Program-made: the position numbers and the translations under genes
Shown here: positions 5,289-43,506 of the stretch, piece after piece
How positions within the stretch are numbered: position 1 is the stretch's first letter
Layout: the number at the start of each line of letters is the position of its first letter
The notes under the pieces: model-generated
What the model was told of the DNA's origin: nothing
Databases searched by the model: none
Seen by the model: only the letters and a program-made list of their open reading frames with translations
Origin: an uncultured Chlorobiaceae bacterium
GTDB lineage: Bacteria > Bacteroidota > Ignavibacteria > UBA10030 > SZUA-254
Length of the DNA: 64,000 nucleotides
Assembly: GCA_964520905.1 (NCBI GenBank)
Contig: CAZFQL010000002.1
Span: 134,450-198,449 of the forward strand
Direction of reading: 5' to 3'

Positions 5289-5690
5289 ATGCCTATGGCT
5301 CGTACGAAATATTCAGAACAATTTTGTGCTTACTGCAACAAAGAAACAAAGATGGTTTTGGTTGGAACCATGGAGGGACAGACGGGAAAAATTTGGTATA
5401 AATGTACTCGCTGCCACTATACAAGTCTTTTAGAAGACAGCATGTCATCTGACCAGATAAACGGTAAGCTTGATCCGTTAACCGCAACGGTGTATAAACC
5501 GTGCCAGTGTTTCAAAATTGGAGAAGCAATCTTCCACAGCGAGTGGAACGATGTTGGCAAAGTATTAAGTAAATTAAAAACATCCGATGGAAGCCATGCA
5601 ATCGTCGTTTCTTTCGCGAAGCTGGGACAAAGAAAATTAATTGAAAATTTACAAGAAGAACCAATTTTGGAATTAACAACAACGGAGTAA
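5289..5690 (+). CDS. Hypothetical protein with N-terminal CxxC...CxxC zinc-ribbon
   Basis: CAYC-x21-CTRC motif. The ORF sits between the tRNA and rpsU. No recognisable family. Confidence 0.4.
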   Translation: MPMARTKYSEQFCAYCNKETKMVLVGTMEGQTGKIWYKCTRCHYTSLLEDSMSSDQINGKLDPLTATVYKPCQCFKIGEAIFHSEWNDVGKVLSKLKTSDGSHAIVVSFAKLGQRKLIENLQEEPILELTTTE

Positions 5691-16081: not shown

Positions 16082-16196
16082 TGTTATTTTTTTTGTCTGT
16101 GTAGGCAGAGCTTCTACCGAATATTATATTTTAAACTCATTGTTGTTAATAAACCGGTGCGGGTAAACTAGATAGTCACTAATTTATATTCTAATA

Positions 16197-17186
16197 TCAT
16201 TCCACCCAACTCCGTGGAAGGTTTTTAGTTATCTCTATATTATCGAATCTCTTGCTTTTCCGTACACCTGCTTTCTTTGCCCATTCTGCCATTCGGTGTA
16301 TCCCCTCATCCAGTTGAAATTTGGTGGTATGTTTAAAAACCTTTTGTACTTTAGAGTGATCGGAATACGCGTGAACAACTTCTTTGCGTGCATCCAAATA
16401 AGTGATATTTGGTTCAACGTTAAATTCGCGAGCTACTGCTCTTGCAATATCGTTTACAGCTACCGGCTCGTCTGCCCCGATATTGAATATATTATTATAT
16501 GCTTCAGGTACATCAATCGAATTGGCAATAACAGGTGAAACATCCAGGATGTATGTAAATGCACGCGTTTGCTTCCCGTCGCCGAAAATTGTCAATGCTT
16601 TACCTTGCATAATTTGATTCATGAAAATACCTAAAACATTTCGGTATTTATCTCCGAGATTTTGGTTCTCACCGTATACATTATGAGGGCGAAAAATAAT
16701 ATAATCCAAACCGAAGAGATGGCTCGAAGCTTTCAATTCCTGTTCTACTGCAAGCTTTGCAATACCATAAGAATCTTCGGGCACCGGCGTCATATCTTCG
16801 CGCATCGGCAATTGCGCTGCACCGTAAACGGCAATGGACGAAGTAAACACAAAGCACTTCACGTTATTATTGACCGAGGCATTAATGAGATTAACGCTAC
16901 CGATCAAATTATTTTCGTAGTTGAACCGTTTGATGAAATGGCTCAATCCTTCGGCTGCGTAAGCTGCGAGATGGAAAACATATTCAATGCGATAATCCTT
17001 GAAAATTTTATCTATAAGCGCAACATCATTGATTGAACCTTCGATGAATATAGCGGCAGGATTTACATTCTCTTTGAATCCGCCGCTGAGGTCATCAAGA
17101 GCAATGACTTGATGTTTCTTGGAAAGCAAATCATTTATGATATGAGAGCCAATGAACCCAGCTCCTCCTGTTACTAATATTGCCAT
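16197..17186 (-). CDS. NAD-dependent sugar-nucleotide epimerase/dehydratase (SDR family)
   Basis: ILVTGGAGFIGSH Rossmann motif and YxxxK (YGIAKLAVEQ). Confidence 0.8.
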   Translation of the reverse strand: MAILVTGGAGFIGSHIINDLLSKKHQVIALDDLSGGFKENVNPAAIFIEGSINDVALIDKIFKDYRIEYVFHLAAYAAEGLSHFIKRFNYENNLIGSVNLINASVNNNVKCFVFTSSIAVYGAAQLPMREDMTPVPEDSYGIAKLAVEQELKASSHLFGLDYIIFRPHNVYGENQNLGDKYRNVLGIFMNQIMQGKALTIFGDGKQTRAFTYILDVSPVIANSIDVPEAYNNIFNIGADEPVAVNDIARAVAREFNVEPNITYLDARKEVVHAYSDHSKVQKVFKHTTKFQLDEGIHRMAEWAKKAGVRKSKRFDNIEITKNLPRSWVE

Positions 17187-29489: not shown

Positions 29490-30185
29490 GAAAAAAACTC
29501 TGTATTAGTTAGCTGATATCGTGACAACAGTTCTCATGATATTCTCTCATGCTTACTCCCAGATGGATTTAACAAAATATGCAAAAGTGACCCGTTGGAT
29601 ATCATTGGTTCATTCATTCTGGGCTTCAAAGGTAATTACTTCATACCTGACAGTTTACGAACCGGGCAGGGTTATTGGATTAAACTTAATCAACCAGGGG
29701 AACTCCTTTTGAGCGGAACTTATCCACCATTGCCAAAAACATCAGCTAATAAAATATTGTTGGGATTCAATACAATCACCATATGCGATGGAATAAATAA
29801 CTCCCAATCGCTGTACTTTGGTTCGGGTGAATTGTAAGGATTTACTCCCAGCTTCTTCAAACTGCCACCCAAGCCACCGTCAGGCAGTTTCGATGTAAGG
29901 TTCGGTTCTGGAAGAATGTTAGAATGCCTTGTAGATGTTCCAAACGAAAAATCTGAATACCAAATTTACATTCAGACTGAATCCAGTCCGATTAAAATAT
30001 GTTGTAATATGAAGCCGGAAGAAACTCGGAACTTCGTCATCCGGGATGAGTCAAGCAAGATTTATCCACTTGATAAAAATGGTAGTTTTGTACTCAACAA
30101 AGAAACATTAGAAATCAGAGTACTTACTCTGGCATCTGTGCTTACTCAAATCCTAAACTCGGATTTTTATTTATCACTATTATAA
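29490..30185 (+). pseudogene. Decayed gene for a secreted protein (signal peptide interrupted by a stop, then about 3 frame-shifted fragments)
   Basis: ATG-AAAAAAACTCTGTAT-TAG, followed in frame by LADIVTTVLMIFSHAYSQ, a classic signal peptide. Downstream fragments 29521..29712, 29595..29837 and 29916..30185 lie in different frames. Confidence 0.35.
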
Positions 30186-30390
30186 ATTATATTGTCAGTA
30201 TTGAGAATTCTATTAAAGTTGTAACCATAGCAAAGTTAAGTTTAAAGCCCGCAAATCTAAATGTAATCAATAAATTCACACTTTCTTATTTTAATTGTTT
30301 TCATTAATATTGGCATAATTTTAGAGTAAGATAGGCAGCCCGCTGAATTTATTGTTAAAATATTCTAACCCTTCTTGAAAGGAAAAGAAA

Positions 30391-30867
30391 ATGTCTGACA
30401 AAAGTCGTCGTGATTTTCTAAAAAAATCTTTAGCAATCGGGTCTGTGGCTACCGGACTTTCGACATCAACTTCAAAGGCGTCACCTAAGAATATTTTATC
30501 CGACGACAGGATGGGAGTTTTGGTTGACACAACTGTTTGTGTCGGCTGCCGTAATTGTGAGTGGGCTTGCAAAGATGCTCATAATTTACCTGCCGGTAAT
30601 TTAGATTCCTATGAAGACAGAAAAATTATAGAAACTAAAAGAAGACCTGATCAAACAGCACCCACAGTTGTTAATGAATATCCTCACGGTAAATATTCAA
30701 ATCTTCCCGTCGATGTGAAAGTACAGTGCATGCATTGCGATCACCCGGCTTGTGTCTCTGCTTCCATCGTGGACACTTTTTTAAACATCCTAACGAATTG
30801 GTTGACTGGCATTCAAAAAACCTTTCAGATAACCATGAAGATCATATTTTGTTTGATGACGAAGTAA
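30391..30867 (+). pseudogene. Truncated NrfC/HybA-like Tat-exported 4Fe-4S subunit (N-terminal remnant)
   Basis: Tat motif SRRDFLKKS and a first ferredoxin motif CVGCRNCEWAC. The second motif is degenerate (CMHCDHPACVSAS). After that the reading frame runs into unrelated sequence and stops. Collinear with the intact paralog 32750..33610. Confidence 0.5.
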
Positions 30868-30947
30868 GAAGTTATCCCTTGCTTCATTTAACTAAATTTG
30901 TATAATATTTCATTCAAAGATAAGTAATTAATGAAGGATAATTTAAA

Positions 30948-32114
30948 ATGATTGTATTAATTGTAATTCTTACGATTATTGTATTTGTGATTGTAGATTT
31001 TCTTTTACGAACACTGATGCAAAGAGTACAAAAAGTAAAATTAGAAAAAGAAAGGTCAGAAGCTCTTTATGTCGGATTAAGACTTGATTTTACAAGTGAA
31101 GCAAAATCCCTGAAACGCGTAGAAGTACAAAATCCAAAAGCCAAAATTCTGTGTGTTGATGATGAACCGGTAATTTTGGACAGCTTTAGGAAAATTCTAG
31201 TCGTTGATGGTTACTCTGTCGATACGGTGGAGACCGGGGCAGAAGTTCTTGGACTTATACAAAAACGAGACTATGATTTTGTTTTCACAGATCTTAAGAT
31301 GCCGGAAATGGATGGTGTGGATGTAACAAAAGCTGTGAAACATTTACGTCCCGATATTGATGTAATTGTAATTACCGGTTATGCAGCAGTCGAAACAGCC
31401 GTAGAAACCATGAAGTTTGGTGCTATGGATTATGTGCAAAAACCATTTACCGAAGGTGAATTAATTGAGTTTGTTAACAAATCTCTAATTAAGCGTCAGG
31501 AAAAAATTGAAAAACAGATGAAACCGACTGTACGATTAGTAACAGGTACGACAGCAGAATCTAGTTCGAAGCATGAATTCAATGTACCGGCAGGGGTTTT
31601 TATAGCCCATCAACACACATGGATAACAATTGAGATGAACGGCATAGTACGAATAGGAATTGATGATTTCATAAGAAAAATATTGAGAAAGATCGACGGA
31701 GTTGAGTTACCTAAAATTGGTAGTAAAATTAAGAAAGGAGATTTGTTGTTTACAATAAAACAGGAACATCAGTCATTCGATATTCCTTCTCCAATAAGCG
31801 GAAGAGTTATATCCGTAAATTCTGAACATGCAGAACACCCCGAGTGGATTGTGATAAAGCCCTTCGAGCTTAGCTGGATGTGTTTAATCGAACCTTCAAG
31901 TCTTTCTGAAGAATTACATTACTTAAAAATTGGACGTGAAACCATTGATTGGTACCAACAGGAAATAAATAAGTACAATGAGATTTTAAGAAAAGCTGAA
32001 AAAGAGAAAGAGCAAATTGAATCATCTGGCGAAGGAAATAATGCAGCAGAGAAAGAAAGGTTAGATAAGAAAATTTGGGGGGAGTTTTCGCAAACCTTTC
32101 TCAATAAAAAATAA
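30948..32114 (+). CDS. Membrane-anchored response regulator: N-terminal TM helix + CheY-like receiver + C-terminal GcvH-like (glycine cleavage H-protein fold) domain
   Basis: TM MIVLIVILTIIVFVIVDFLL. REC with DDE pocket, phospho-Asp (FTDLKMP), T (ITGY) and K (QKPF). C-terminal region HQHTWITIEMNGIVRIGIDDF...LPKIGSKIKKGDLLFTIKQ...SPISGRVISVN aligns with GcvH (HEW...G..T.GIT.HAQ..LGD...V.LP.VG..V..G......ESVKA.S.I.APVSG.I..VN). Confidence 0.8.
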   Translation: MIVLIVILTIIVFVIVDFLLRTLMQRVQKVKLEKERSEALYVGLRLDFTSEAKSLKRVEVQNPKAKILCVDDEPVILDSFRKILVVDGYSVDTVETGAEVLGLIQKRDYDFVFTDLKMPEMDGVDVTKAVKHLRPDIDVIVITGYAAVETAVETMKFGAMDYVQKPFTEGELIEFVNKSLIKRQEKIEKQMKPTVRLVTGTTAESSSKHEFNVPAGVFIAHQHTWITIEMNGIVRIGIDDFIRKILRKIDGVELPKIGSKIKKGDLLFTIKQEHQSFDIPSPISGRVISVNSEHAEHPEWIVIKPFELSWMCLIEPSSLSEELHYLKIGRETIDWYQQEINKYNEILRKAEKEKEQIESSGEGNNAAEKERLDKKIWGEFSQTFLNKK

Positions 32115-32168
32115 TAAATTTCAGGTAGTTATATTGTTTTTAAATTTAATATCTAAAATGAGGTAATT

Positions 32169-32705
32169 ATGATTAAATATCTTTTCATTGCGCAAACAAT
32201 ATTCCTTTTAATAGCTGGCGTTTTAAGTGCTCCATTTAAAAAAGGAACTGAATTAGGCAAAGTAGTAACTTCATACAGATCGGAAATAAACTCTACTTTA
32301 GCAACAAGTATCTCCAATGAGGACACCTTGCAAATACCATCTGAATTAAAAATACCCTCCTCTCTTGGGGAGGTTGTATTTCCTCATAAACTCCATCTGG
32401 AAGATTTGGAAATCAAATGTGTAGAGTGTCATCATCAACTTAATGCTAAAAAATTAAATACCCCACATCCAAATTATTTGAAGAATAGTTGCAGCAGTTG
32501 TCATGTTGAATCAGATAAGACCCATAAAAAAATTTATAATTGTACGGTATGCCATCGTTCTCACATTGCAAATATAGCTGACGAAATGCTAAGTAGAAAA
32601 GTAGCCATACATGAAAAATGCTGGCAGTGTCATGAGTCTGAAACAGGTAAGCAAGCAAGTGAAAATTGCGGGATGTGCCACAATGGTAAAAAAACAAAGT
32701 TTTAA
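32169..32705 (+). CDS. Periplasmic pentaheme cytochrome c, c3/c7 family
   Basis: Signal peptide and five CXXCH motifs (CVECH, CSSCH, CTVCH, CWQCH, CGMCH). VVFPHKLH matches the c7/c3 distal-His signature (PpcA VKFPHKAH). Confidence 0.85.
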   Translation: MIKYLFIAQTIFLLIAGVLSAPFKKGTELGKVVTSYRSEINSTLATSISNEDTLQIPSELKIPSSLGEVVFPHKLHLEDLEIKCVECHHQLNAKKLNTPHPNYLKNSCSSCHVESDKTHKKIYNCTVCHRSHIANIADEMLSRKVAIHEKCWQCHESETGKQASENCGMCHNGKKTKF

Positions 32706-32749
32706 TTTTATAATTCTTTTATATAGATTGCATTTCAATAGGAGTTACG

Positions 32750-33610
32750 ATGAACAGAAGAAATTTTATTAGAACAACAGCTACCATTAGTACAGCAGCT
32801 TTACCTCTGGGGAAATTAAATGCTCAGGAGAATAAAGAGAAAAAGGAATTTGTCGGAGTGCTGGTTGATACAACTAGATGCCTCGGATGTAGATTGTGTG
32901 AGGTTGCTTGTTCTGAAGAGCACGGCAATTATGTGCCAGACGTGAAAAATGATCATGCCCTTGAAAAAATTAGAGATACGAGTGAAAAACAGTGGACTGT
33001 TGTGAACAGATTTGAAACCAAAAACGGTGAAGTGTTCGTAAAAAGACAATGTATGCACTGCTGGCAACCAGCATGTACTGCAGCTTGCCTTACTAATGCA
33101 ATGTTTAAAACTAAAGAAGGACCGGTTACTTGGGATGGAGATAAATGTATGGGATGCAGATATTGCATGGTATCCTGCCCATTCGATATTCCCAAATTTG
33201 AATATAACAAATGGAATCCAAAAATCCAGAAATGCAATATGTGTTATGAAAGATTGCAAGAAGGTAAGAAACCAGCCTGTGTACAAGCTTGTCCAAAAGA
33301 TGCCTTATTATTCGGCATTAAAAGAGAACTCATGGAAGTGGCAAGACACCGTGTTTACAGTTATCCTGATAAATATGTCCATAAAATATATGGAGAACAT
33401 GAGGTAGGGGGAACCGGTTGGCTTTATCTTTCAGGAGTTCCGTTTGAGCAAATCGGATTTAGGACAGACCTTGGTACAACTCCATATCCTGAATATACAA
33501 AAGAATTCCTCTTTTCTGTTCCACTTGTTTTATTCGGTGTACCTGCACTATTGTTTGGCTTTAATTTGCTAACGGACAGGAAAAATGAAATAAATAAAAG
33601 GGAGAGATAG
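32750..33610 (+). CDS. Tat-exported 4Fe-4S ferredoxin-type subunit (NrfC/HybA/PsrB-like) with C-terminal TM anchor
   Basis: Tat signal MNRRNFIRTTA. Four Cys clusters: CLGCRLCEVAC, CMHCWQPACTAAC, CMGCRYCMVSCP and CNMCYERLQEGKKPACVQACP. C-terminal helix FLFSVPLVLFGVPALLFGF. Confidence 0.85.
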   Translation: MNRRNFIRTTATISTAALPLGKLNAQENKEKKEFVGVLVDTTRCLGCRLCEVACSEEHGNYVPDVKNDHALEKIRDTSEKQWTVVNRFETKNGEVFVKRQCMHCWQPACTAACLTNAMFKTKEGPVTWDGDKCMGCRYCMVSCPFDIPKFEYNKWNPKIQKCNMCYERLQEGKKPACVQACPKDALLFGIKRELMEVARHRVYSYPDKYVHKIYGEHEVGGTGWLYLSGVPFEQIGFRTDLGTTPYPEYTKEFLFSVPLVLFGVPALLFGFNLLTDRKNEINKRER

Positions 33611-33613
33611 AAA

Positions 33614-34813
33614 ATGATTAATACTGCAGTTTTCAGTGGTGAATTTAAAAGGTTTATTAAGTTTTTTATACAAGAATTAAAACCCCGAGGTAAATGGCTC
33701 ACACCATTTAATGTTATATCTATTCCAATTATACTTTTAGGTCTTGTAATCCTTTTCTTTCGGTTTACTCAGGGGCTTGGATCGGTTACTAATCTTTCTC
33801 AGCAATTTCCATGGGGATTCTGGATTGGGTTTGATGTTGTTACTGGTGTGGCTTTTGCTGGTGGTGCTTATGTTATCACTTTTGTCGTTTATGTAATGAG
33901 AGTTGATAAATATCATTCTATTGTTAGAGTAACAGTTTTAAACGGATTATTGGCTTACATTTTTTACGCTGGCGCATTGGTTTTGGATTTGGGAAGACCT
34001 TGGCATATAATTAATCCAATTATAGGCAACTCGTTTGGTTTTAACTCAGTATTATTTTTAGTCTCGTGGCATTTCATGCTTTACATGATTGCGGAGTTTG
34101 TTGAGTTTTCACCTGTAATCGCAGAATGGGCACATTGGGAGAAAATACGTAAATTTGTTACTGCACTTACTCTTGGAGCTGTCATATTCGGAATTTCACT
34201 TTCAATGTTACACCAGTCAGGTCTTGGCGCGCTCTTTTTAATGGCAAAGCCCAAAATACATCCGCTCTGGTATTCTGAATTTATTCCGATCCTATTTTTT
34301 GTGTCAAGCATTTTTGCCGGTTTATCAATGATAATTTTTGAAGGAACTATAAGCCACAAAGTTTTCAAAGATAAGATTGACCCCAAGAGTCATGGTACAT
34401 TTGATGATATAATTTTTGGTTTAGCAAAAGGGGCCGCCATTTCGATGTTTGTATATTATTTTTTTAAGGCACTTATCTTCATCCATGGAGAAGAATGGGT
34501 TCTTATAAATGATTTTTGGGGCTTCTGGTTCCTTTTAGAAGTGATTGGTTTTGTTCTGATTCCATGTTTTATGTTTGCCTATGGAGTAAAACACAGGAGT
34601 TTAGGTATTATACGAGTTGCATCTGTATTAACCTTAATTGGTATAATTCTCAATAGATTAAATATATCAATCATCACATTTAATTGGACTTCACAGGTAA
34701 GGTATTATCCATCCTGGCAAGAAATAGTAGTGACACTGATGGTTATATTCTCTGAGATTTGGGTCTTCCGATGGGTTGTTACAAGGATGCCTGTATTTCA
34801 GAAATCTCATTAG
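33614..34813 (+). CDS. NrfD/PsrC-family integral membrane quinol-interacting subunit
   Basis: 399 aa, polytopic. Starts 4 bp after the NrfC-like stop. Has the NrfD-family arrangement. Confidence 0.75.
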   Translation: MINTAVFSGEFKRFIKFFIQELKPRGKWLTPFNVISIPIILLGLVILFFRFTQGLGSVTNLSQQFPWGFWIGFDVVTGVAFAGGAYVITFVVYVMRVDKYHSIVRVTVLNGLLAYIFYAGALVLDLGRPWHIINPIIGNSFGFNSVLFLVSWHFMLYMIAEFVEFSPVIAEWAHWEKIRKFVTALTLGAVIFGISLSMLHQSGLGALFLMAKPKIHPLWYSEFIPILFFVSSIFAGLSMIIFEGTISHKVFKDKIDPKSHGTFDDIIFGLAKGAAISMFVYYFFKALIFIHGEEWVLINDFWGFWFLLEVIGFVLIPCFMFAYGVKHRSLGIIRVASVLTLIGIILNRLNISIITFNWTSQVRYYPSWQEIVVTLMVIFSEIWVFRWVVTRMPVFQKSH

Positions 34814-34848
34814 CATAAAATATTCTTTAAAATATAATGGATTAAAAA

Positions 34849-34980
34849 ATGGAAACATATACATACGTAAACATCTTTGAAACAAAAGGACTGGAATATC
34901 TTTTATTAATTTGTTTTCTTGTACTTTTTGTGCTGTTAGTCCGATATCTATCCCCTACGAATAAAAAAAACAGAGACTAG
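34849..34980 (+). CDS. Small single-TM protein (43 aa), possible accessory subunit
   Basis: METYTYVNIFETKGLEYLLLICFLVLFVLLVRYLSPTNKKNRD lies 35 bp after nrfD-like. No strong RBS. Below the size cutoff of the ORF track. Confidence 0.25.
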   Translation: METYTYVNIFETKGLEYLLLICFLVLFVLLVRYLSPTNKKNRD

Positions 34981-35343
34981 AGAATTGACATATAATTGAA
35001 TATCTATTCCGGCTCAGATACTTGTAGCGGATAAAATACAAAATCTCGGTAATTTTGGATGATATTAAATAACGGACGAATTTCTATAAAAGATAAAAAA
35101 ACACGGCTCTGTGTCGTTTTATATAGGTAAAACAATGATTAAATTAGAAAGATGATTAGCTAAGAATTATTAAATGATAATTAACTACACGTAATGATGA
35201 TAAGGAAGATTTGCATCAAGATTTGAATTTTAGTACAGAGCAAGCTTGCAATAATTGTCATGATGATTACTGTTTTCCAAAGCAAAAACCAGGAAAGTTA
35301 GTTGGTAAATAATTAAATTTGAATTGAATAATAATTTCGTAAT

Positions 35344-37215
35344 ATGCTTTTTAAGAAGATTGGTTTTCGGTTAATATTTGCTGTTGCATTAACATCGCTT
35401 GTAATAATTGGCGTGTTTGCGTACTTCAATATCAAATCGCAGAGCAGCAGCTTGATATCTGAAGTTGAGCGACACGCAAACCAGCTTGGTGAAACCGTTA
35501 TATCAAGTACACGTTTTGATATGATGTTAAATCAAAGAGATAGAATTCAACAGACGATTAATTCAATTGGAACGCAGCCGCAAATAAGAGATGTGAGAAT
35601 TATAAATAAAATCGGTGAGATTATTTATTCATCCGATTCTAAAAACATCAATAAAATGGTTGATAAGCGTGCTGAGAGTTGTTATGCCTGCCACTCGGAA
35701 GATCAACCTTTAGAGCAGATATCTATCACCGAGCGAACCCGAATATTCAAGATTCATCCAGACTCCAACCGTGTTCTTGGAATAATTACCCCGATTTACA
35801 ACGAAACATCGTGCTGGCAGGCAAAATGCCACGCGCATCCACAAAATCAAAAAGTTCTCGGTGTACTGGATGTTTCTATATCTCTTGCAGAGGTTGATAA
35901 AGCGATTATTACACGAGAATGGGAAATTGTGATCTTTGCAATCGTTGCAATAATCACTGTCGGATTATTAATAGCTTTCTTCGTAAGGCGCTGGGTATCT
36001 AATCCCGTTAATGATTTATTAAATGCGACACAACAGGTTAGTCAGGGTAATTTGAATTATGCCATTAAAGATCTCAGCGATGATGAAATAGGGAAACTTG
36101 GTTCTTCATTTAACAATATGACAAAGAAACTTGCAGAAGCACGCATGCAGCTTTTTCAATCGGATAAAATGGCTTCGCTCGGGCGGCTTGCTGCAGGTGT
36201 TGCACACGAAATAAATAACCCTCTTACTGGAGTTCTTACATACAGCAGTTTTCTTTTAAAAAGAACAAAGAATAATCCCGAACTTCAAGAAGATCTGAAT
36301 ATTATTGTCAGAGAAACTATACGAAGCCGGGAAATTGTAAAAAGCTTATTAGATTTTGCACGTCAATCAGTTCCCAGAAAAAGCAGTGCAAGTATAAATG
36401 AAATTATTGACAAAGCAATCATTGTGGTTGAAAAACAGTTGTCGTTCAAAAAAATAAAAATTATAAGACAGTCGGAAAATAAACTTCCCCAAATAACTGT
36501 CGATTCAAATCAAATTCAGCAAGTATTCATTAATCTTTTTGTAAATGCTTCAGATGCAATTGGCAAAGACGGCGGAACAATAACAATAGTTAAAAAACAA
36601 ATTTCTCTTTCCCCATTTGGAGTTGCTCAAATAAAGAAAGCATCATGTCCAAAACGTCATAGTCTAATTGATAATGATTTTAAGATTGACGGACTACCAG
36701 CATTGAAAGTGAAAGTGGTTTCTGCCGGTAAGGAGGGAATAATTCATCTTGATCCAGTTTACGGGAAACATCGTAACTATTATTATCCTGATGTTAAAAT
36801 AGATAAAGACACAAAATTTGTTTGTCCAGATTGCGATACATCTCTTGTTCAACTGGACAAATTCTGCCCCAAATGTGGTGCACCTGCTCTTGCATTCGAG
36901 ATCAACGGACAGGGTGTTTACGAAGTATGCTCTTCCGAAAACAGTAACTGGGAGAAATGGGATTTTATTGACTCTTCAGGATTAAAAGATTATATAGAAA
37001 TAAAAATCAGCGACACGGGTTGCGGAATAAGTAAAGATGATCTTCAAAAAATCTTTGAGCCATTTTTCTCAACCAAAGGACAAAAAGGTACCGGACTTGG
37101 TTTGGCTGTTATCTGGGGAATAATTGATAATCATAACGGAACAATAAACGTTGAAAGCGAGGAAGGAAAGGGTACAACTTTCGTTGTCCGACTTCCTCTT
37201 ACGCAGCAGAAGTAA
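35344..37215 (+). CDS. Sensor histidine kinase with c-type-heme-binding periplasmic domain (TM-periplasmic-TM-HAMP-HisKA-HATPase_c with zinc-ribbon insertion)
   Basis: TM1 at about 8-28 and TM2 IVIFAIVAIITVGLLIAFFV. The periplasmic segment carries CYACH (CXXCH) and CWQAKCH (CX4CH). H-box is AHEINNPL, N-box NLFVNASDA, G-box DTGCGI...GTGLGL. A roughly 120 aa insert between N and G1 contains CPDCD-x11-CPKCG. Confidence 0.85.
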   Translation: MLFKKIGFRLIFAVALTSLVIIGVFAYFNIKSQSSSLISEVERHANQLGETVISSTRFDMMLNQRDRIQQTINSIGTQPQIRDVRIINKIGEIIYSSDSKNINKMVDKRAESCYACHSEDQPLEQISITERTRIFKIHPDSNRVLGIITPIYNETSCWQAKCHAHPQNQKVLGVLDVSISLAEVDKAIITREWEIVIFAIVAIITVGLLIAFFVRRWVSNPVNDLLNATQQVSQGNLNYAIKDLSDDEIGKLGSSFNNMTKKLAEARMQLFQSDKMASLGRLAAGVAHEINNPLTGVLTYSSFLLKRTKNNPELQEDLNIIVRETIRSREIVKSLLDFARQSVPRKSSASINEIIDKAIIVVEKQLSFKKIKIIRQSENKLPQITVDSNQIQQVFINLFVNASDAIGKDGGTITIVKKQISLSPFGVAQIKKASCPKRHSLIDNDFKIDGLPALKVKVVSAGKEGIIHLDPVYGKHRNYYYPDVKIDKDTKFVCPDCDTSLVQLDKFCPKCGAPALAFEINGQGVYEVCSSENSNWEKWDFIDSSGLKDYIEIKISDTGCGISKDDLQKIFEPFFSTKGQKGTGLGLAVIWGIIDNHNGTINVESEEGKGTTFVVRLPLTQQK

Positions 37216-37224
37216 CTTTAATGT

Positions 37225-38043
37225 ATGAGTAAAACAGCAAACATATTGGTTATTGATGATGAGAAGGTAATAATAGATGGAGTAGTTAAAATCTGCTCAC
37301 TCGAAAATTACTCAATTGATGTTGCTTTAAATATAAAAACAGCCATTGAAAAGATCTCAAAAAAATATTACTCAGTTATTATCTGCGATATTATGATGCC
37401 CGATGGTGATGGTTTCCAGGTTTTAAATGAGCTTCAAACGAGAAATATAGACAGTGCTTTAATAATGATGACAGGTTATTCGACTGTAGAAAACGCTGTT
37501 AATTCACTTTACCGGGGTGCGATAGATTTTATTCCCAAACCATTTACGGTTGACGAGTTGCTGAGTTCAATTTATCGCGCAAACAAATATCAGCAAATTA
37601 AAGAAAAGCAAAAACAATCCTCAAGAGATAATCATAAAGTTGAACTATTTTACGTTGAATGTCCGTCAAAATATTATCGCCTCGGTCGTTCAAGCTGGTT
37701 GTTTGAAGAAAGAGACGGTTCAGTTTTAATAGGTGTTTGCGATTTTTTTCTTTCAACGATTGATTCAATAACGGAAATCGAATTTCTTGAGCTTGAAGAA
37801 GAAATTGCACAAGGCATTAGCTGCCTTACAATCAAATCAAGCGATGAGAGAATACATAAAATTCATTCTCCCGTTTCAGGCAGAATAATTGATGTGAATA
37901 AAAATCTTAAATTAGTTTCTAATCTGATCGAAAAAGATCCGTACTTTGAAGGATGGGTATATCGCGTTATACCTCATGACCTTGGTTATGAAATTAAAAA
38001 TTTGGTTCCTTGCAGTTCAGATAGAATGCAGATTCGTACTTAA
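37225..38043 (+). CDS. Response regulator: receiver domain + GcvH-like C-terminal domain (soluble)
   Basis: REC with ILVIDDEKV, ICDIMMPDGDG, MMTGY and PKPF. C-terminus YYRLGRSSWLFEERDGSVLIGVCDF...CLTIKSSDERIHKIHSPVSGRIIDVNKNLKLVSNLIEKDPYFEGWVYRVIP aligns with GcvH, including PY.GW. Starts 10 bp after the kinase. Confidence 0.8.
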   Translation: MSKTANILVIDDEKVIIDGVVKICSLENYSIDVALNIKTAIEKISKKYYSVIICDIMMPDGDGFQVLNELQTRNIDSALIMMTGYSTVENAVNSLYRGAIDFIPKPFTVDELLSSIYRANKYQQIKEKQKQSSRDNHKVELFYVECPSKYYRLGRSSWLFEERDGSVLIGVCDFFLSTIDSITEIEFLELEEEIAQGISCLTIKSSDERIHKIHSPVSGRIIDVNKNLKLVSNLIEKDPYFEGWVYRVIPHDLGYEIKNLVPCSSDRMQIRT

Positions 38044-38079
38044 CAAGAGTTCAATAAATTATTTTTTAGGAGAAACGTC

Positions 38080-39243
38080 ATGGCATTATTAATACTAGCA
38101 GTAATTATATTCATCATTGCGGATATCTTAATCCGGATGATCAGCAAGCGCTTAACTGAAAATAAGTTAAAGAAAGAACGTGAAAGTGCATTGCAGGAAA
38201 GTCTTAAGTTAGATTTTACCAGCGAAGCAAAAACATTAAAACGTGCTGAAGTCCAAAATCCAAAAGCCAAAATCCTTTGTGTTGATGATGAAGAAGTTAT
38301 TCTTGGCAGCTTCAGAAAAATTCTTGTGCTTGATGGTTACGCTATAGATACTGTAGAAACAGGTCAGGAAGCTCTTGGTTTGATACAGAAGCATCATTAT
38401 GATTTTGTTTTTACAGATCTTAAAATGCCGCTTATGGATGGAGTTGAAGTGACAAAATCAGTAAAGCATTTACGCCCCGATATAGATGTAATTATTATTA
38501 CCGGTTATGCTTCTGTGGAAACTGCCGTTGAAACAATGAAATACGGTGCAATGGATTATGTTCAAAAGCCTTTCACTGAAGACGAGCTTCTGGCATTTGT
38601 GAAGAAAATATTAATTAAAAGACAGGATAAAATTCAAAAACAGCTTAAACCAAAAGTGCATATCACTCATCTTCCAGCATCGCACGATTTTATTAAAGGT
38701 GAATTTTCAATCCCTGGCGGTGTGTTCATATCTAAGAATCATACGTGGTTTAGCATCAATCAAGAAGGAATTGCCAAAATTGGTATAGATGACTTTGCTA
38801 AAAAACTAATTGGTAAAATAGATTCGATTGAACTTCCAAATCTTGGGATGAACGTAAAAGCCGGTCAGCCCTTATTTACGGTAAAACAAGGAGACAGAAG
38901 TGTTGCTTTTAATTCTCCCATTACCGGAAAAGTATCACAGATAAATACCGTTTTGCTGAGAAATCTTGTGGCACTGGAACTGAGTTCTTATGAAAGAAAT
39001 TGGATTTGCGCTCTCGATACCGATAAAATAGATGACGAAATTAAAGGAATGTGCATCGGTAAATCTGCTGTTGCTCTATTCCAGAATGATATTGAAAAGT
39101 GCAAAATTTTATTGAAAGATCTATTGAAATCCGAAAAACGCGAAGGTGAGTATATTGAAGAAGGTCAGATTTACATCGGGCAGCTTGAAGAACTTTCTGA
39201 TGTGAATTGGCAGAAAGTAGTCGCGGAATTTTTTAGAAGATAA
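38080..39243 (+). CDS. Membrane-anchored response regulator: TM + receiver + GcvH-like domain (close paralog of 30948..32114)
   Basis: The receiver domain is nearly identical at protein level and clearly similar at DNA level to 30948..32114. C-terminus NHTWFSINQEGIAKIGIDDFAKKLIGKIDSIELPNLGMNVKAGQPLFTVKQ...SPITGKVSQIN...YERNWI is GcvH-like. Confidence 0.8.
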   Translation: MALLILAVIIFIIADILIRMISKRLTENKLKKERESALQESLKLDFTSEAKTLKRAEVQNPKAKILCVDDEEVILGSFRKILVLDGYAIDTVETGQEALGLIQKHHYDFVFTDLKMPLMDGVEVTKSVKHLRPDIDVIIITGYASVETAVETMKYGAMDYVQKPFTEDELLAFVKKILIKRQDKIQKQLKPKVHITHLPASHDFIKGEFSIPGGVFISKNHTWFSINQEGIAKIGIDDFAKKLIGKIDSIELPNLGMNVKAGQPLFTVKQGDRSVAFNSPITGKVSQINTVLLRNLVALELSSYERNWICALDTDKIDDEIKGMCIGKSAVALFQNDIEKCKILLKDLLKSEKREGEYIEEGQIYIGQLEELSDVNWQKVVAEFFRR

Positions 39244-39927: not shown

Positions 39928-42900
39928 ATGGATACAAAAAAAAATCGCACAATGGTAACAATCGACGGTAACGAAGCCGCCGCTTACGTTGCGCATAAAT
40001 TAAACGAAGTAATTGCAATTTACCCGATTACCCCGTCATCCCCCATGGGTGAATGGTCAGATGAATGGTCTGCACTCGGAAGAAAAAATTTATGGGGAAC
40101 GATTCCCCATGTGATCGAGATGCAAAGCGAAGGCGGAGCTGCCGGTGCTGTACATGGCGCACTTCAAACAGGCGCACTTTCAACTACATTCACATCGGCA
40201 CAGGGACTTCTCTTAATGATCCCAAATATGTTTAAGATTGCCGGCGAGCTTACACCCACAGTTTTCCATATTGCGGCGCGAACCGTTGCCACTCATGCCC
40301 TTTCGATATTCGGCGAGCATAGCGATGTTTACGCTGCCCGATCTACAGGTTTTGCTATGCTTGCATCCAATTCGATTCAAGAAATTATGGATTTCGCCCT
40401 CATCTCACAAGCGGCAACTCTGGAAGCGCGGGTACCATTCATGCATTTCTTCGATGGTTTTCGATCTTCACATGAAGTTATGAAAATTGAGCAGCTCGAT
40501 GAAAGCGATATGCGCACGATGATAGATGATGAATTGATTCGTGCACACCGTAAGCGCTCAATGTCGCCGGAACATCCTGTCCTTCGCGGCACTGCACAAA
40601 ATCCGGATGTATATTTTCAGGCTCGCGAGACTGTAAATCCATTTTACGACGCTTGCCCTGGTATCGTTCAAAAAGTGATGGATAAATTTGAAAAAGTTGT
40701 TGGAAGAAAATATAAACTCTTTCAGTATTTCGGCGCTCCTGATGCAGATCGAATTATAATAATGATGGGATCCGGGGCTGAAACAGCACAAGAAACAGTT
40801 GAATATCTGAATGCCCGCGGTGAAAAAATCGGTCTGCTCAAAGTACGTCTCTATAGGCCCTTCTCTGTCGAACACTTTCTGAATGAAATACCGAAAACTG
40901 TTAAGACTATTGTCGTGCTGGACCGGACGAAAGAACCGGGCGCAACGGCTGAACCACTGCACCTCGATGTCATTACAGCAATTAGCGAAGCCTTCACAAA
41001 CGGGAAACTTCCCTTGCAATCTTATCCCCGTATAATTGGCGGACGGTATGGACTTTCATCGAAGGAATTCACTCCGGCTATGGTCAAGGGTGTATTTGAT
41101 GAATCAAAAAAATCGCAACCGAAAAATCATTTCACTATCGGCATACTCGACGACATCACAAAAACCAGCCTTGATTACGATCCGTCTTTCACCACGGAAC
41201 CGGATGATGTTGTTCGTGCCATTTTCTATGGTTTAGGGGCTGATGGCACAGTAAGCGCAAATAAAAACTCAATCAAAATTATCGGTGAAGACACGGAGTT
41301 TTTTGCCCAGGGATATTTTGTATACGATTCAAAGAAATCGGGTTCAACCACAACATCGCACTTGCGCTTCGGTCCACGTCCGATACATTCTACTTATTTG
41401 ATAGATAAGGCAAGCTTCATGGCATGCCATCAATGGTTCTTCCTTGAAAAATATGATGTTTTAAGATCTGCAATCTCCGGAGCTACATTTCTGCTGAACA
41501 GTCTCTACGGTCCCGAAGAAGTATGGGGAAAACTTCCGCGCCACATTCAGAAAGAAATTATTGAGAAGCGTATAAAATTTTATGTGATCGATGCATACAA
41601 AGTCGCGCGCCAGACCGGCATGGGCGGCAGAATCAATACGATCATGCAAACCTGTTTCTTTGCGATCTCGGGCGTATTACCGAAAGACGAAGCGATAGCG
41701 GCTATAAAAAAATCGATAGAAAAAACATACGGCAAGAAAGGCGCCGATATCGTAACGCAAAACTTCGAGGCTGTCGATCTGACTCTTGCTAATCTCTTCC
41801 AGGTAAAAATTCCGAATAACGTCACCAGCACCGTTGAAATGCCGCCTACTGTCTCAGAGAAAGCTCCAAGCTATGTACGGGAAGTTCTGGCAAAAATTAT
41901 CACTAACGATGGAGACAACCTGCCCGTGAGTACAATGCCGGTGGATGGAACATTTCCAACGGCGACTGCACAATGGGAAAAGAGAAATATCGCACTAGAG
42001 ATTCCAACATGGGAAGCAGAAATCTGTATCCAATGCAATAAATGTGTAATGGTCTGCCCACATGCCACTATACGAGCCAAGGTTTATGATCCAAAAGAAT
42101 TGGCAAATGCACCTTCAACATTTAAGTCGATCGACTTCAAAGGCGTAGAATACAAAGGAATGAAATATACGATTCAAATTGCGCCGGAAGATTGCACCGA
42201 GTGCGGGTTGTGTGTGGACGTCTGCCCTGCAAAGAGTAAGTCGGAAGCAAAGGTTAAAGCAATCAATATGAAACCGCAACCTCCGATTCGTGAATCAGAA
42301 CGCGCCAATTATGATTTCTTCCTTGCAATACCGGAAATCGATAGGCGCACAGTTAAAGTTGATACAATCAAAGGGTCTCAATTCCTCCAACCATTGTTTG
42401 AATACTCCGGTGCCTGTGCCGGATGCGGTGAAACACCCTATGTGAAACTTGTAAGTCAACTCTTTGGCGACCGGGCAATCATTGCTAACGCAACCGGATG
42501 TTCATCGATCTATGGAGGCAATCTTCCAACTACGCCATGGAGTATAAACAACGACGGTCGCGGACCGACATGGTCTAATTCGCTGTTTGAAGACAATGCG
42601 GAATTCGGTTTGGGGATGCGTTTAACAGTCGATAAACATACCGAAATGGCAAAAGAATTAGCGCTAAAGCTTTCTAATGAGATCGGCGATAAGCTCGTCA
42701 ATGATATAATGAATGCCGATCAATCGAATGAAGCCGGAATTTATGATCAGCGAGAACGCGTAAAACTGCTGAAAGAAAAAATTAGTACCGTAAATACTCC
42801 CGAAGCAAAAAGTTTACTGAGTATCTGCGACAATCTCGTGAAGCGCAGTATCTGGATAATCGGCGGTGACGGTTGGGCATACGATATAGGTTATGGCGGA

Positions 42901-43506
42901 CTCGATCATGTGATTGCATCTGGGAAGAATGTGAATATCCTTGTTTTGGATACCGAAGTTTACTCAAACACTGGTGGACAGATGTCGAAAGCGACAGCCC
43001 GCTCTGCAATAGCAAAGTTCGCCGCTAACGGTAAACCTACGGCGAAGAAAGATCTCGGCATGCTCGCTATGGCATATGGTAATGTGTACGTTGCATCTGT
43101 AGCAATGGGGTCGAACGATTTACAAACACTTCGCGCTTTTCTGGAAGCTGAGGCATACGATGGACCATCAATTATTATTGCCTATAGTCACTGCATTGCC
43201 CACGGAATCAATATGACTAAGGGAATGCAGAACCAGAAATTAGCGGTAGACACCGGTTATTGGTCTTTGTACCGTTACAATCCGATGTTAGTGAAAGAAG
43301 GGAAAAACCCGCTTAAACTCGATTCGAAAGAACCGAAATTGCCGCTAAAAGAATTTACATCGATGGAAACGCGATTCAAAATGTTAGAAAAGAGTTATCC
43401 AGAGCGTGCAAAGGCACTCGGGGTTCTTGCGCAAAACGATGTAAATGCGCGATGGAAAATATATGAGCATCTTGCTCAAGATGGAAATTCGGAAAATAAA
43501 AAATAA
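39928..43506 (+). CDS. nifJ: Pyruvate:ferredoxin (flavodoxin) oxidoreductase, single-polypeptide PFOR
   Basis: 1192 aa. N-terminal TIDGNEAAAYVAHKLNEVIAIYPITPSSPMGEW. Two ferredoxin motifs (CIQCNKCVMVCPH, CTECGLCVDVCP). TPP domain GGDGWAYDIGYGGLDH. Confidence 0.95.
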   Translation: MDTKKNRTMVTIDGNEAAAYVAHKLNEVIAIYPITPSSPMGEWSDEWSALGRKNLWGTIPHVIEMQSEGGAAGAVHGALQTGALSTTFTSAQGLLLMIPNMFKIAGELTPTVFHIAARTVATHALSIFGEHSDVYAARSTGFAMLASNSIQEIMDFALISQAATLEARVPFMHFFDGFRSSHEVMKIEQLDESDMRTMIDDELIRAHRKRSMSPEHPVLRGTAQNPDVYFQARETVNPFYDACPGIVQKVMDKFEKVVGRKYKLFQYFGAPDADRIIIMMGSGAETAQETVEYLNARGEKIGLLKVRLYRPFSVEHFLNEIPKTVKTIVVLDRTKEPGATAEPLHLDVITAISEAFTNGKLPLQSYPRIIGGRYGLSSKEFTPAMVKGVFDESKKSQPKNHFTIGILDDITKTSLDYDPSFTTEPDDVVRAIFYGLGADGTVSANKNSIKIIGEDTEFFAQGYFVYDSKKSGSTTTSHLRFGPRPIHSTYLIDKASFMACHQWFFLEKYDVLRSAISGATFLLNSLYGPEEVWGKLPRHIQKEIIEKRIKFYVIDAYKVARQTGMGGRINTIMQTCFFAISGVLPKDEAIAAIKKSIEKTYGKKGADIVTQNFEAVDLTLANLFQVKIPNNVTSTVEMPPTVSEKAPSYVREVLAKIITNDGDNLPVSTMPVDGTFPTATAQWEKRNIALEIPTWEAEICIQCNKCVMVCPHATIRAKVYDPKELANAPSTFKSIDFKGVEYKGMKYTIQIAPEDCTECGLCVDVCPAKSKSEAKVKAINMKPQPPIRESERANYDFFLAIPEIDRRTVKVDTIKGSQFLQPLFEYSGACAGCGETPYVKLVSQLFGDRAIIANATGCSSIYGGNLPTTPWSINNDGRGPTWSNSLFEDNAEFGLGMRLTVDKHTEMAKELALKLSNEIGDKLVNDIMNADQSNEAGIYDQRERVKLLKEKISTVNTPEAKSLLSICDNLVKRSIWIIGGDGWAYDIGYGGLDHVIASGKNVNILVLDTEVYSNTGGQMSKATARSAIAKFAANGKPTAKKDLGMLAMAYGNVYVASVAMGSNDLQTLRAFLEAEAYDGPSIIIAYSHCIAHGINMTKGMQNQKLAVDTGYWSLYRYNPMLVKEGKNPLKLDSKEPKLPLKEFTSMETRFKMLEKSYPERAKALGVLAQNDVNARWKIYEHLAQDGNSENKK

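Follow-up and report, generated by a model that had tools for sequence, protein, structure and literature searches.

Positions 32169-34980 of the analysed window (the whole stretch of 64,000 nucleotides) encode a four-gene membrane complex that probably connects the quinone pool with periplasmic cytochromes. With a probability of about 70%, we read the region jointly as a four-subunit oxidoreductase of the Hmc/Nhc type, a signalling half made up of a kinase and REC–GcvH-fold proteins, and a replacement scar at 30391-30867, with 32169-34980 being a periplasm-facing, pentahaem cytochrome c:menaquinone oxidoreductase. The first-pass annotation had seen here a minimal three-subunit module. The module has more than the minimum of parts and does not stand alone: it belongs to a cross-phylum cassette of ~9 kb (30233-39243), in which the redox genes are combined with a predicted haem-sensor kinase and three REC–GcvH-fold proteins. 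Its conservation was traced over 80 species-level loci from more than 10 bacterial phyla, with hosts in the Ignavibacteria, KSB1, Acidobacteriota, Gemmatimonadota, Proteobacteria and others, all comparison genomes being MAGs or metagenome contigs.

Subunits of the membrane complex

An ORF check gave the module and the upstream remnant the same coordinates as the first-pass annotation, and the gene content which it proposed for 32169-34813 was borne out. The first gene (32169-32705, like all features described here on the forward strand) encodes a 178-aa periplasmic cytochrome c of the c3/c7 class, with an N-terminal signal or anchor, five CxxCH motifs, which are present in all complete orthologues, and seven further histidines. 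Profile searches recovered the Pfam families Cytochrome_C7 (41.4 bits, cut-off 24.8) and Cytochrom_CIII (37.7 bits, cut-off 22.9), as well as the NCBIfam models TmcA (37.6 bits) and HmcA (31.9 bits, positions 470-539 of 541). The cytochrome also matches residues 489-558 of PDB 1z1n (E 2.3e-5), and it is its C-terminal half that the last domain of HmcA resembles. It is the sole multihaem ORF in the window; single CxxCH motifs occur in three others, namely the kinase and the ORFs at 5262-5687 and 16176-16535.

The second gene (32750-33610) encodes a 286-aa HmcB/HybA-like 4x[4Fe-4S] subunit, with a Tat motif (RRNFIR), a Fer4_11 match (74.5 bits), 16 cysteines forming four cluster motifs and a hydrophobic C-terminal transmembrane anchor. 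Its NCBIfam scores are 332.5 bits for HmcB, 218.8 for HybA, 99.3 for NrfC and 61.9 for QrcC, and it is 60-80% identical across phyla. The third gene (33614-34813) specifies a 399-aa NrfD-family membrane subunit of the HmcC/HybB-like kind, predicted to interact with quinone (Pfam NrfD 62.6 bits; NCBIfam HmcC 401.6, HybB 246.5, QrcD 62.6), which shows 62-87% identity over the 80 species-level genomes. Its residues R105/Y115/E164/H200 match R89/Y99/E148/H184 of HybB, which are functionally tested proton-pathway residues (PMC8076601).

A possible 43-aa single-TM ORF after the NrfD gene, which the first-pass annotation had mentioned without counting it as a subunit, is real and conserved (34849-34980). 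The motif ME.Y.YVNIFETKGLEYLLL followed by a transmembrane segment is kept after NrfD in all cytochrome-containing loci whose contig reaches that far, and the conservation of the ORF is far above chance. Searches for this small subunit recovered 75 cluster representatives among 1.84 billion proteins. HmcD of NCBIfam is the best match of the window peptide, but with an E-value of 0.038; it is matched by 11 of 26 orthologues, at best with E 3.4e-5. The product, with a predicted N-out, C-in topology, is a real fourth subunit that is remotely HmcD-like, the link to HmcD being weak for the window peptide itself.

The earlier annotation sought the kin of these proteins among NrfC/NrfD, Qrc or ACIII. 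A three-subunit conduit from menaquinol to cytochrome, of a stripped-down NrfBCD, ACIII or Qrc type and accompanied by a remnant NrfC duplicate that decayed in place, is in our estimation unlikely. The kinds of subunit do agree with it (multihaem c, four-cluster iron-sulfur protein, NrfD), the cytochrome weakly resembles ActA of ACIII (E 0.065-0.19), and the ten-helix model of the NrfD subunit, which is of low confidence (pLDDT 57), finds its best PDB matches in ActC/ActF. However, the profile scores favour HmcB (332 bits) and HmcC (402), and then HybA/HybB, over NrfC (99, cut-off 378), QrcC (62, cut-off 400) and QrcD (63, cut-off 570). Moreover, Pfam gives no NrfB-family match, a QrcB or ActB molybdopterin-like domain is absent, there is a single NrfD-like gene, and a fourth, HmcD-like subunit is present. 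The scores with the Hmc models all remain below the NCBIfam equivalog cut-offs (HmcB 332 vs 420, HmcC 402 vs 550, HmcD 14 vs 34), and the module is a relative rather than an orthologue of the Desulfovibrio complexes.

In the Hmc/Nhc-type complex that we favour, periplasmic redox partners would exchange electrons with the pentahaem cytochrome, and the HmcB-like subunit, exported by Tat, would provide the next carriers with its four [4Fe-4S] clusters. The path would end at a quinone site of the NrfD/HmcC-like subunit, which is without cofactors and keeps the HybB-type proton-pathway residues. The 43-aa HmcD-like helix would complete the membrane part. As the module has no b-haem and no cytoplasmic redox subunit, there would be no electron transfer across the membrane. 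The earlier idea of electron transfer between quinone and periplasmic cytochromes stands in its general form, whereas the sequence does not settle the direction proposed with it, from quinol to cytochrome.

The window ORFs also agree with the previously noted absence of a catalytic subunit: no molybdopterin, NrfA or hydrogenase protein occurs among the ten largest, and the window contains no partner cytochrome, hydrogenase or reductase. Alternatively, the iron-sulfur/NrfD pair might be the anchor of a Hyd-2-type periplasmic [NiFe] hydrogenase or a formate dehydrogenase encoded elsewhere, with the cytochrome as an accessory. Scores of 219 bits with HybA and 246 bits with HybB would suit such an anchor, as would the kept HybB proton-pathway residues and the fact that five Acidobacteriota loci, of which at least three are labelled Thermoanaerobaculia, have a HybO/HybC-type hydrogenase immediately upstream of the cassette. 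Yet these five loci hold a separate HybA/HybB-like pair beside the hydrogenase, and no hydrogenase is encoded within 10 kb in 75 of the 80 related loci (5/80 have one). The type A redox operon is always headed by the cytochrome gene and the Hmc models score above the Hyb models, all of which renders the anchor role very improbable. Many related loci adjoin large multihaem cytochromes.

Predicted haem-sensor kinase and REC–GcvH-fold proteins

Three genes of the cassette encode proteins in which a REC domain is combined with a GcvH fold. RGL1 (30948-32114; Response_reg 106 bits, GCV_H 70 bits) is membrane-anchored, and its AF2 model (pLDDT 75) comprises a helix (2-45), a REC domain (56-190), a GcvH fold (210-325) and then two long C-terminal helices, the GcvH fold matching the E. 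coli H-protein (3ab9) with a TM-score of 0.9 and an rmsd of 1.9 Å. RGS (37225-38043) is a soluble protein of 272 aa (Response_reg 88.6 bits, GCV_H 57.6 bits), whose gene comes after that of the kinase in most loci. RGL2 (38080-39243; Pfam) is a second membrane-anchored version of 387 aa, 53% identical to RGL1. The phospho-acceptor residues of the REC domains are invariant, the lipoyl lysine is absent, 176 family members having G, S, D or E in its column, and none of the three proteins possesses a DNA-binding domain. We found no description of such GcvH-fold partners within the literature searchable here.

The sensor histidine kinase (35344-37215; Pfam HAMP, HisKA and HATPase_c) is organized as a TM helix, a periplasmic sensor, a second TM helix, HAMP, HisKA and a HATPase domain interrupted by a Cys-rich insertion. 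Its sensor contains a CxxCH and a Cx4CH motif, and 77 orthologues show little or no variation at C113/C116/H117, C157/C162/H163 and H165. Together with weak matches to the 3b42 haem-c sensor domain (E 0.27) and Pfam Mcp40H-20_sensor, this predicts a di-haem c sensor. The kinase may sense the periplasmic redox state and then phosphorylate the REC–GcvH proteins, whose non-lipoylated GcvH-fold domains would act on the complex at its cytoplasmic face; this last step, the least certain of the scheme, would amount to protein-level regulation via the GcvH fold.

The five-haem cytochrome is encoded in 49 of the 80 species-level loci and the same kinase family in 64. A GcvH-fold gene adjoins the redox genes in 66 of 69 informative loci, in 60 of them directly upstream on the same strand; in the remaining three (L037, L065 and L079) the redox genes are present and no GcvH-fold gene was found. 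In type B loci, which lack the cytochrome, the HmcD-like anchor is itself fused to a GcvH fold, encoded right after NrfD, and in one single case (L073) NrfD, anchor and GcvH fold are all fused, with a puzzling topology.

This near-obligate co-occurrence with kinase and GcvH-fold genes, the type B anchor–GcvH fusion and the type A cassettes without DNA-binding output could also be explained by a mainly sensory complex, which would report on how reduced the quinone pool or the periplasmic cytochromes are, via the HmcD-like and GcvH-fold proteins, to the two-component system rather than carry bulk respiratory flux. We hold this to be highly improbable: the kinase owns an invariant haem-binding periplasmic sensor, and NrfD is under very strong constraint that includes the proton-pathway residues (62-87% identity), for which reason an energy-coupled enzyme fits better than a sensor.

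Cassette boundaries and replacement scars

Homology to the type C cassettes of L094, L096 and L097 starts abruptly at 30233, the left boundary, beyond which the flanks differ, and ends at 39243, where the stop codon of RGL2 forms the right boundary. The segment 30233-30390 is 87.5% identical in nucleotide sequence to what precedes FeS2 in these three loci; it contains a putative promoter and 5' leader, and this retained type C upstream region would drive expression.

The remnant noted earlier, with its Tat signal and iron-sulfur motif, is real, and is what is left of the 5' part of FeS2, an HmcB/HybA-like gene of type C that is a pseudogene here (30391-30867). Its 158-aa ORF shows the motifs SRRDFLK, CVGCRNCEWAC and CMHCDHPACVSA, and matches full-length iron-sulfur proteins of 260-304 aa over residues 1-130 only (82% aa identity to P0122). 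The remnant was said to lose frame; a 1-nt deletion near 30781 is indeed present, and in the second cluster motif a Cys has been replaced by Ser, but homology itself stops at ~30803, at a rearrangement breakpoint detected with blastn, and the final ~20 codons are unrelated junction read-through. Intact FeS2 orthologues (302-304 aa) are present in L094, L096 and L097, the sister genome L015 has a shorter stub (~210 nt of FeS2), and close relatives (87-90% nt identity) have an intact FeS2–NrfD2–13-haem-cytochrome block ahead of the same kinase genes. The window kinase is at least 90% identical in amino acids to those of intact type C cassettes.

A second scar, at ~35232-35312, consists of the last ~27 codons and stop of the type C 13-haem cytochrome gene, Cyt2 (...ACNNCHDDYCFPKQKPGKLVGK in the window, ...GCNSCHENFVYPKQKPGKLVGK at the Cyt2 C-terminus of L096), and blastn homology to type C cassettes restarts at 35246. 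The remnant and the intact iron-sulfur gene are paralogues (34% identity), in line with the in-place decay of an NrfC duplicate that the Nrf-type alternative and the first-pass annotation propose. However, since the remnant's orthologues head an intact, different cassette and a second stub lies at the far end, replacement rather than local duplication is indicated. The cassette of the ancestral lineage would have been of type C (FeS2, NrfD2, 13-haem cytochrome, kinase, RGS and RGL). An RGL1–cytochrome–FeS–NrfD–HmcD segment from a type A cassette would then have replaced its redox genes between codon ~137 of FeS2 and the final ~27 codons of the cytochrome gene; the type C upstream region and signalling genes would have been retained.

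Comparison with known systems

A close parallel in composition is NhcABCD of Desulfovibrio, the nine-haem cytochrome complex of the Hmc family, a TpI-c3:menaquinone oxidoreductase (PMC8076601). In both, a single operon encodes a multihaem cytochrome of the c3 class, an HmcB-type periplasmic protein with 4x[4Fe-4S], a 10-helix NrfD-type HmcC/NhcC and a small single-TM HmcD/NhcD, and neither has a b-haem or a cytoplasmic subunit. The window cytochrome, however, has five haems in 178 aa rather than nine, the scores fall short of the equivalog cut-offs, the system occurs outside sulfate reducers, and it comes linked with a haem-sensor kinase and with GcvH-fold proteins, neither of which the Nhc description mentions (PMC8076601). 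HmcABCDEF of Desulfovibrio vulgaris supplies, with HmcB, HmcC and HmcD, the top-scoring NCBIfam models for the window subunits, and the C-terminal half of the window cytochrome aligns with the last HmcA domain. In contrast, the window lacks the 16-haem HmcA, HmcE (a NarI-type cytochrome b) and the HdrD-like HmcF, which leaves electrons no route through the membrane to the cytoplasm.

Escherichia coli hydrogenase-2 is comparable in its Tat-exported, tail-anchored four-cluster protein (34% identity to HybA) and its cofactor-less HybB-type subunit (27% identity, R89/Y99/E148/H184 conserved), whereas in the window hydrogenase subunits are absent, a cytochrome c substitutes for the catalytic dimer and an HmcD-like protein is added. 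Cbc4 (CbcSTU) of Geobacter sulfurreducens and other predicted Cbc quinol:cytochrome c oxidoreductases, compared by description, likewise combine a multihaem cytochrome that is anchored, a protein with 4x[4Fe-4S] and a subunit integral to the membrane in an inner-membrane complex thought to join menaquinone with periplasmic cytochromes; by the same description, CbcS is tetrahaem with a NapC/NirT-like haem core, as against the pentahaem c3/c7 class of the window. Finally, the C-terminal domains of RGL1, RGS and RGL2 share the H-protein fold with GcvH and other lipoate-binding proteins, but are fused to REC domains or membrane anchors, lack the lipoyl lysine and are encoded beside a respiratory complex.

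The redox genes and their small membrane subunit

The ORFs of the redox module proposed in the first-pass annotation are all present, on the forward strand. The leading gene (32169-32705) encodes a 178-aa pentahaem cytochrome that has a hydrophobic signal or anchor at its N-terminus and five CxxCH motifs accompanied by seven further histidines, which scores above the Pfam thresholds for both Cytochrome_C7 and Cytochrom_CIII. It is followed by an FeS subunit (32750-33610; 286 aa) with a twin-arginine motif, 16 cysteines distributed over four cluster motifs and a C-terminal end that is hydrophobic, and by a membrane subunit of 399 aa with ten predicted helices (33614-34813). The latter belongs to the NrfD/PsrC superfamily, as indicated by its match to PF03916 (62.6 bits against a cut-off of 25.8) and the adjacent four-cluster FeS gene; its structure model is poor (pLDDT 57) and the fold matches obtained with it are indicative only. 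The module had also been described as devoid of a catalytic subunit, and indeed no molybdopterin enzyme, NrfA or hydrogenase is encoded by the ten longest ORFs in the window. The cytochrome is the sole multihaem ORF of the window, single CxxCH motifs being found in the kinase discussed below and in two unrelated ORFs (5262-5687 and 16176-16535). No NarI- or HdrD-like gene is present in the surrounding cassette (30233-39243), and scans for sigma-70 promoters and terminators gave no signal above background.

The possible 43-aa single-TM ORF noted after nrfD (34849-34980) is a real gene, as it is kept across relatives in more than 10 phyla. In all cytochrome-containing relatives with contig sequence beyond the NrfD gene, the set on which conservation was counted, that gene is succeeded by an ORF for a peptide of the form ME.Y.YVNIFETKGLEYLLL, which continues into a TM helix and ends in a basic tail. 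The best NCBIfam match of the window peptide is HmcD (E 0.038; 14 bits against a cut-off of 34), a family matched by 11 of its 26 orthologues with a best E of 3.4e-5. Searches of 1.84 billion cluster representatives recovered 75 relatives, most of them 36-114 aa in length; the only two long ones (232 and 244 aa, in an unbiased library) both carry a GCV_H domain.

Cassette layouts and the GcvH-fold partners

A one-genome-per-species scan recovered 354 stretches encoding an NrfD relative, which gives an upper estimate of about 350 species-level genomes with this variant of the complex. The best 80 of these 354 were examined: their NrfD proteins are 62-87% identical and derive from more than 10 phyla, the sources including Ignavibacteria, Calditrichota, KSB1, Acidobacteriota, Gemmatimonadota, Beta- and Gammaproteobacteria, Spirochaetota, Myxococcota, Planctomycetia, Bacteroidales and others. 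A five-haem cytochrome is encoded in 49 of the 80 loci, a kinase of the same sensor family in 64 and at least one GcvH-fold gene in 71. Among the 69 loci with enough upstream sequence the GcvH-fold gene lies directly upstream on the same strand in 60, is divergently adjacent or fragmented in six and is absent from three.

Three layouts can be distinguished. Type A, seen in the window, has a membrane-anchored REC-GcvH protein (TM-REC-GcvH; RGL1, 30948-32114), the five-haem cytochrome, FeS, NrfD and HmcD-like genes, and is flanked by the kinase (35344-37215), a soluble REC-GcvH protein (RGS, 37225-38043) and a further TM-REC-GcvH protein (RGL2, 38080-39243). Type B, found in Bacteroidales and others, lacks a cytochrome and combines TM-GcvH, FeS, NrfD, a fusion of an HmcD-like anchor to a GcvH domain, the kinase and a sigma-54-type regulator. 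Type C comprises FeS2, NrfD2, a 13-haem cytochrome (Cyt2), the kinase, REC-GcvH and TM-REC-GcvH. At one locus (L010, 6761-9398, minus strand) a set of TM-GcvH, FeS, NrfD, a 239-aa unknown protein, the kinase and a sigma-54 regulator stands divergent from a type C cassette, implying that several such cassettes can stand side by side in one genome.

Targeted searches of the flanking genes for hydrogenases and multihaem ORFs showed that about 25 related loci adjoin 7-21-haem cytochromes, some of them accompanied by MtrB/PioB-like porins, and that a Hyd-2-type hydrogenase lies beside five Acidobacteriota loci, at least three of them labelled Thermoanaerobaculia. These neighbours point to lineage-specific partners; within the window none of the three (7-21-haem cytochromes, MtrB/PioB-like porins, Hyd-2-type hydrogenase) was found. 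In the Acidobacteriota MAGs L025 and L031-L034, three of which are labelled Thermoanaerobaculia, a complete Hyd-2-type operon is placed directly upstream of the cassette kinase, with HybO/HybC 45-57% identical to those of E. coli and a HybA/HybB-like pair of its own.

The periplasmic sensor of the kinase is marked by C113-x2-C116-H117, C157-x4-C162-H163, H165 and M60, all invariant or nearly so in 77 kinases. The second motif aligns, weakly (E 0.27), with the haem site of the chemotaxis-protein sensor domain 3b42, the Geobacter haem-c PAS sensor, and there is also a weak match to Pfam Mcp40H-20_sensor. The HATPase domain is split by an insertion of about 120 aa (residues ~425-545) with paired CxxC motifs and weak zinc-ribbon matches, only residues 548-620 being matched by Pfam HATPase_c.

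RGL1, RGS and RGL2 all match Pfam GCV_H above the cut-off, and their receiver domains keep all phospho-acceptor residues. The AlphaFold2 model of the GcvH-fold output domain (pLDDT 75) superposes on 3ab9 with a target-normalised TM-score of 0.90 and an rmsd of 1.9 Å, and on the basis of this model the output domains possess a genuine H-protein barrel-sandwich fold. A role of these domains as lipoyl carriers or redox proteins was considered and rejected: the column of the lipoyl lysine (E. coli K65) is occupied by G (56), S (30), D (23) and E (15) in 176 domains, and the same 176 domains have no conserved lysine in the neighbouring columns and no other invariant residue suited to a cofactor, be it Cys, His or Lys. 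The complex also offers electrons no path through the membrane.

In type B the N-termini of 10 of 15 proteins encoded after NrfD match HmcD (best E 4.1e-6), and this fusion of an HmcD-like helix to a GcvH fold means that the H-protein fold is physically attached to one of the subunits of the complex. Type A has this fold under receiver control, with a membrane anchor of its own. DNA-binding output is absent from the type A cassettes, and their gene content suggests that the complex might be regulated at the protein level. In type B there is additionally a third class of GcvH-fold protein, in which an N-terminal Cys-rich segment (C.W..AG...YKLCDR...CE.C) replaces the membrane anchor or receiver (L017 15818-16618; L091 11997-12872; L070 11925-12554; L089 5856-6614). 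One locus (L073 3101-5041) encodes a 646-aa in-frame fusion in which an acidic linker of 45 aa joins NrfD to the HmcD-like helix and the GcvH fold; its predicted topology is a misfit, as the C-terminus of NrfD is cytoplasmic and the N-terminus of the HmcD-like part predicted to be periplasmic, and it may be a sequencing artefact.

Automatic annotation labels the cassette proteins 'hypothetical', 'Fe-S dehydrogenase component' or 'CheY-like/glycine cleavage H'. Full-text literature searches returned no description of a linkage of REC-GcvH proteins with NrfD or the kinase and no published function for the REC-GcvH family, which has thousands of members; the accessory system of kinase and GcvH-fold proteins is thus undescribed in the searchable literature.

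Replacement of the redox genes within a retained signalling unit

Upstream of RGL1 lies a 158-aa ORF (30391-30867), which matches full-length HmcB/HybA-like proteins of 260-304 aa over residues 1-130 only. It does not represent an intact small ferredoxin family, since homologues whose two ends are complete are without exception 260-304 aa long, shorter ones come from contig ends or from assemblies prone to frameshifts, and the sister genome (L015, JAGVIE010000061) keeps only 68 codons. Nor did it arise by recent tandem duplication of the neighbouring FeS gene, to which it is only 34% identical. The first-pass annotation had read it as an ancient duplication followed by decay or rearrangement; this reading gives way to block replacement, which is shown by two stubs and by intact type C relatives. 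Identity ranking of the kinase gave about 57-62% for both type A and type C and was uninformative, so the origin of the kinase-RGS-RGL2 segment was settled through close relatives in the 90% cluster of the kinase. The contigs of two other members of this cluster (L094, L096, L097) hold an intact type C cassette, with FeS2 of 302-304 aa, NrfD2 of 415 aa and Cyt2 of 379 aa with 13 CxxCH motifs; the kinase (623 aa), RGS (272 aa) and RGL (387 aa) have the same lengths as in the window. At the nucleotide level 30233-30803 matches L096 6547-7120 (87.5%) and 35246-39243 matches L096 9929-13901 (89.8%), with no match to L096 in the DNA between 30803 and 35246. In the left stub one nucleotide is deleted near 30781 and a Cys is changed to Ser; the right stub (~35232-35312) still reads ...ACNNCHDDYCFPKQKPGKLVGK*, the C-terminus of Cyt2. 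As L015 has the same arrangement and flanks, with about 210 nt of the left stub kept, the type C redox genes must have been replaced by a type A block that included RGL1 before the lineages split. The two stubs thus record a clean and datable replacement of a respiratory module through which the old upstream region and the signalling genes were retained.

Both ends of the cassette, at 30233 and 39243, are sharp, its flanks differ from those in L094, L096 and L097, and its G+C content (34-36%) is lower than that of most of its surroundings; these features fit relocation or transfer of the whole unit. A segment of about 1.8 kb (31544-33343), covering the 3' part of RGL1, the cytochrome and most of the FeS gene, is 99-99.7% identical to L015 and the adjoining parts 68-90%, a mosaic that reflects either recent recombination between lineages or a chimeric MAG contig. 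At 29586-29720 an orphan stretch of about 45 aa resembles the C-termini of large secreted proteins in L094, L096 and L097 (a Peptidase_S8 and a 1029-aa protein); the stretch probably derives from a type IX secretion sorting domain and adds to the debris at the left junction, and its two small ORFs have no Pfam match. Glycosyltransferase and YfhO-type envelope genes lie upstream of the cassette, and a full-length pyruvate:ferredoxin oxidoreductase (39928-43506; 1906 bits to TIGR02176) directly downstream.

These observations can be combined into a model in which non-lipoylated GcvH-fold proteins would be cytoplasmic-face subunits of a widespread Nhc-type respiratory complex, tethered through the HmcD-like helix in the cytochrome-less variant and having gained receiver domains in the cytochrome-containing one. 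A periplasmic di-haem sensor kinase would then switch this quinone-coupled complex on or off by acting directly at the level of the protein, without a transcription factor. The redox modules, in light of the swap scar in the window, could be exchangeable cartridges under a single signalling unit. Taken jointly, true subunits, a direct kinase switch and exchangeable cartridges form a tentative reading, to which we would give about three chances in ten. If the GcvH-fold proteins are indeed regulatory subunits, a respiratory enzyme would be directly controlled by a two-component system, which is rare, and the H-protein fold would have a new role.

Relationship to known quinone-linked complexes

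The top-scoring NCBIfam families for the subunits are HmcB, HmcC and HmcD, each below its equivalog cut-off. The FeS subunit scores 332.5 bits against HmcB (cut-off 420) and 218.8 against HybA (263), and the membrane subunit 401.6 against HmcC (550) and 246.5 against HybB (450). As all the NCBIfam scores lie under the equivalog cut-offs, the window subunits are relatives rather than orthologues of these proteins. The cytochrome can be aligned over its final 70 residues with the C-terminal domain of the 16-haem HmcA (NCBIfam; PDB 1z1n), the HmcA model giving 31.9 bits against a cut-off of 400 over these residues only.

The systems to which the module had earlier been likened are less close. A resemblance to NrfBCD is not upheld, the FeS subunit scoring 99.3 bits against NrfC (cut-off 377.6), with no Cytochrom_c_NrfB-like match and no NrfA-like ORF in the window. 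The likeness to Qrc likewise fails on QrcC (61.9 against 400), QrcD (62.6 against 570) and the lack of a molybdopterin-family ORF equivalent to QrcB. ACIII has an ActB in which molybdopterin-like and FeS domains are fused, two NrfD-like subunits (ActC and ActF), the pentahaem ActA and ActE, whereas the 286-aa FeS protein of the window lacks an N-terminal molybdopterin-like domain and is accompanied by a single NrfD gene; ActB is matched weakly (6btm_B, E 1.4e-4) and similarity to ActA reaches only E 0.065.

Among the routes into and out of the quinone pool of anaerobes, Hmc-, Nhc- and Cbc-type complexes are the least understood. Of the known systems, the window module comes closest to NhcABCD, HmcABCDEF, the HybA/HybB anchor and the Geobacter Cbc complexes; among the latter, Cbc4 (CbcSTU) is compared through its published description. 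The FeS subunit is 34% identical to E. coli HybA and the membrane subunit 27% to HybB. Replacement of R89, Y99, E148 or H184 in HybB impairs H2 oxidation (PMC8076601), and these residues are kept as R105, Y115, E164 and H200 in the window protein. The Hyd-2 anchor differs in that its equivalog cut-offs are not reached and the window has no hydrogenase. What the sequences establish is the make-up of subunits, the cofactor motifs, the kinship to known families, the conservation and the gene linkage. The complex might exchange electrons reversibly between menaquinone and cytochromes of the periplasm, with coupling to proton movement as in HybB. HmcABCDEF is set apart by the 16-haem HmcA, the cytochrome b HmcE and the HdrD-like HmcF, genes for which are missing from 30233-39243. 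With the HmcD-like gene being real, the module has the four-subunit composition of NhcABCD (PMC8076601), but with a pentahaem cytochrome: in both, one operon supplies a multihaem c3-class cytochrome, an HmcB-type FeS protein, an NrfD-type protein and a small TM subunit, and a b-haem or cytoplasmic subunit is lacking. It differs from Nhc in having five CxxCH motifs in 178 aa where NhcA has nine haems (the match to the nine-haem 1ofw is weak, E 0.76), in its taxonomic range and in its linkage to kinase and GcvH-fold genes. The window complex is also notable for its small, tractable pentahaem cytochrome and for the haem-sensor kinase and REC-GcvH family that accompany it.
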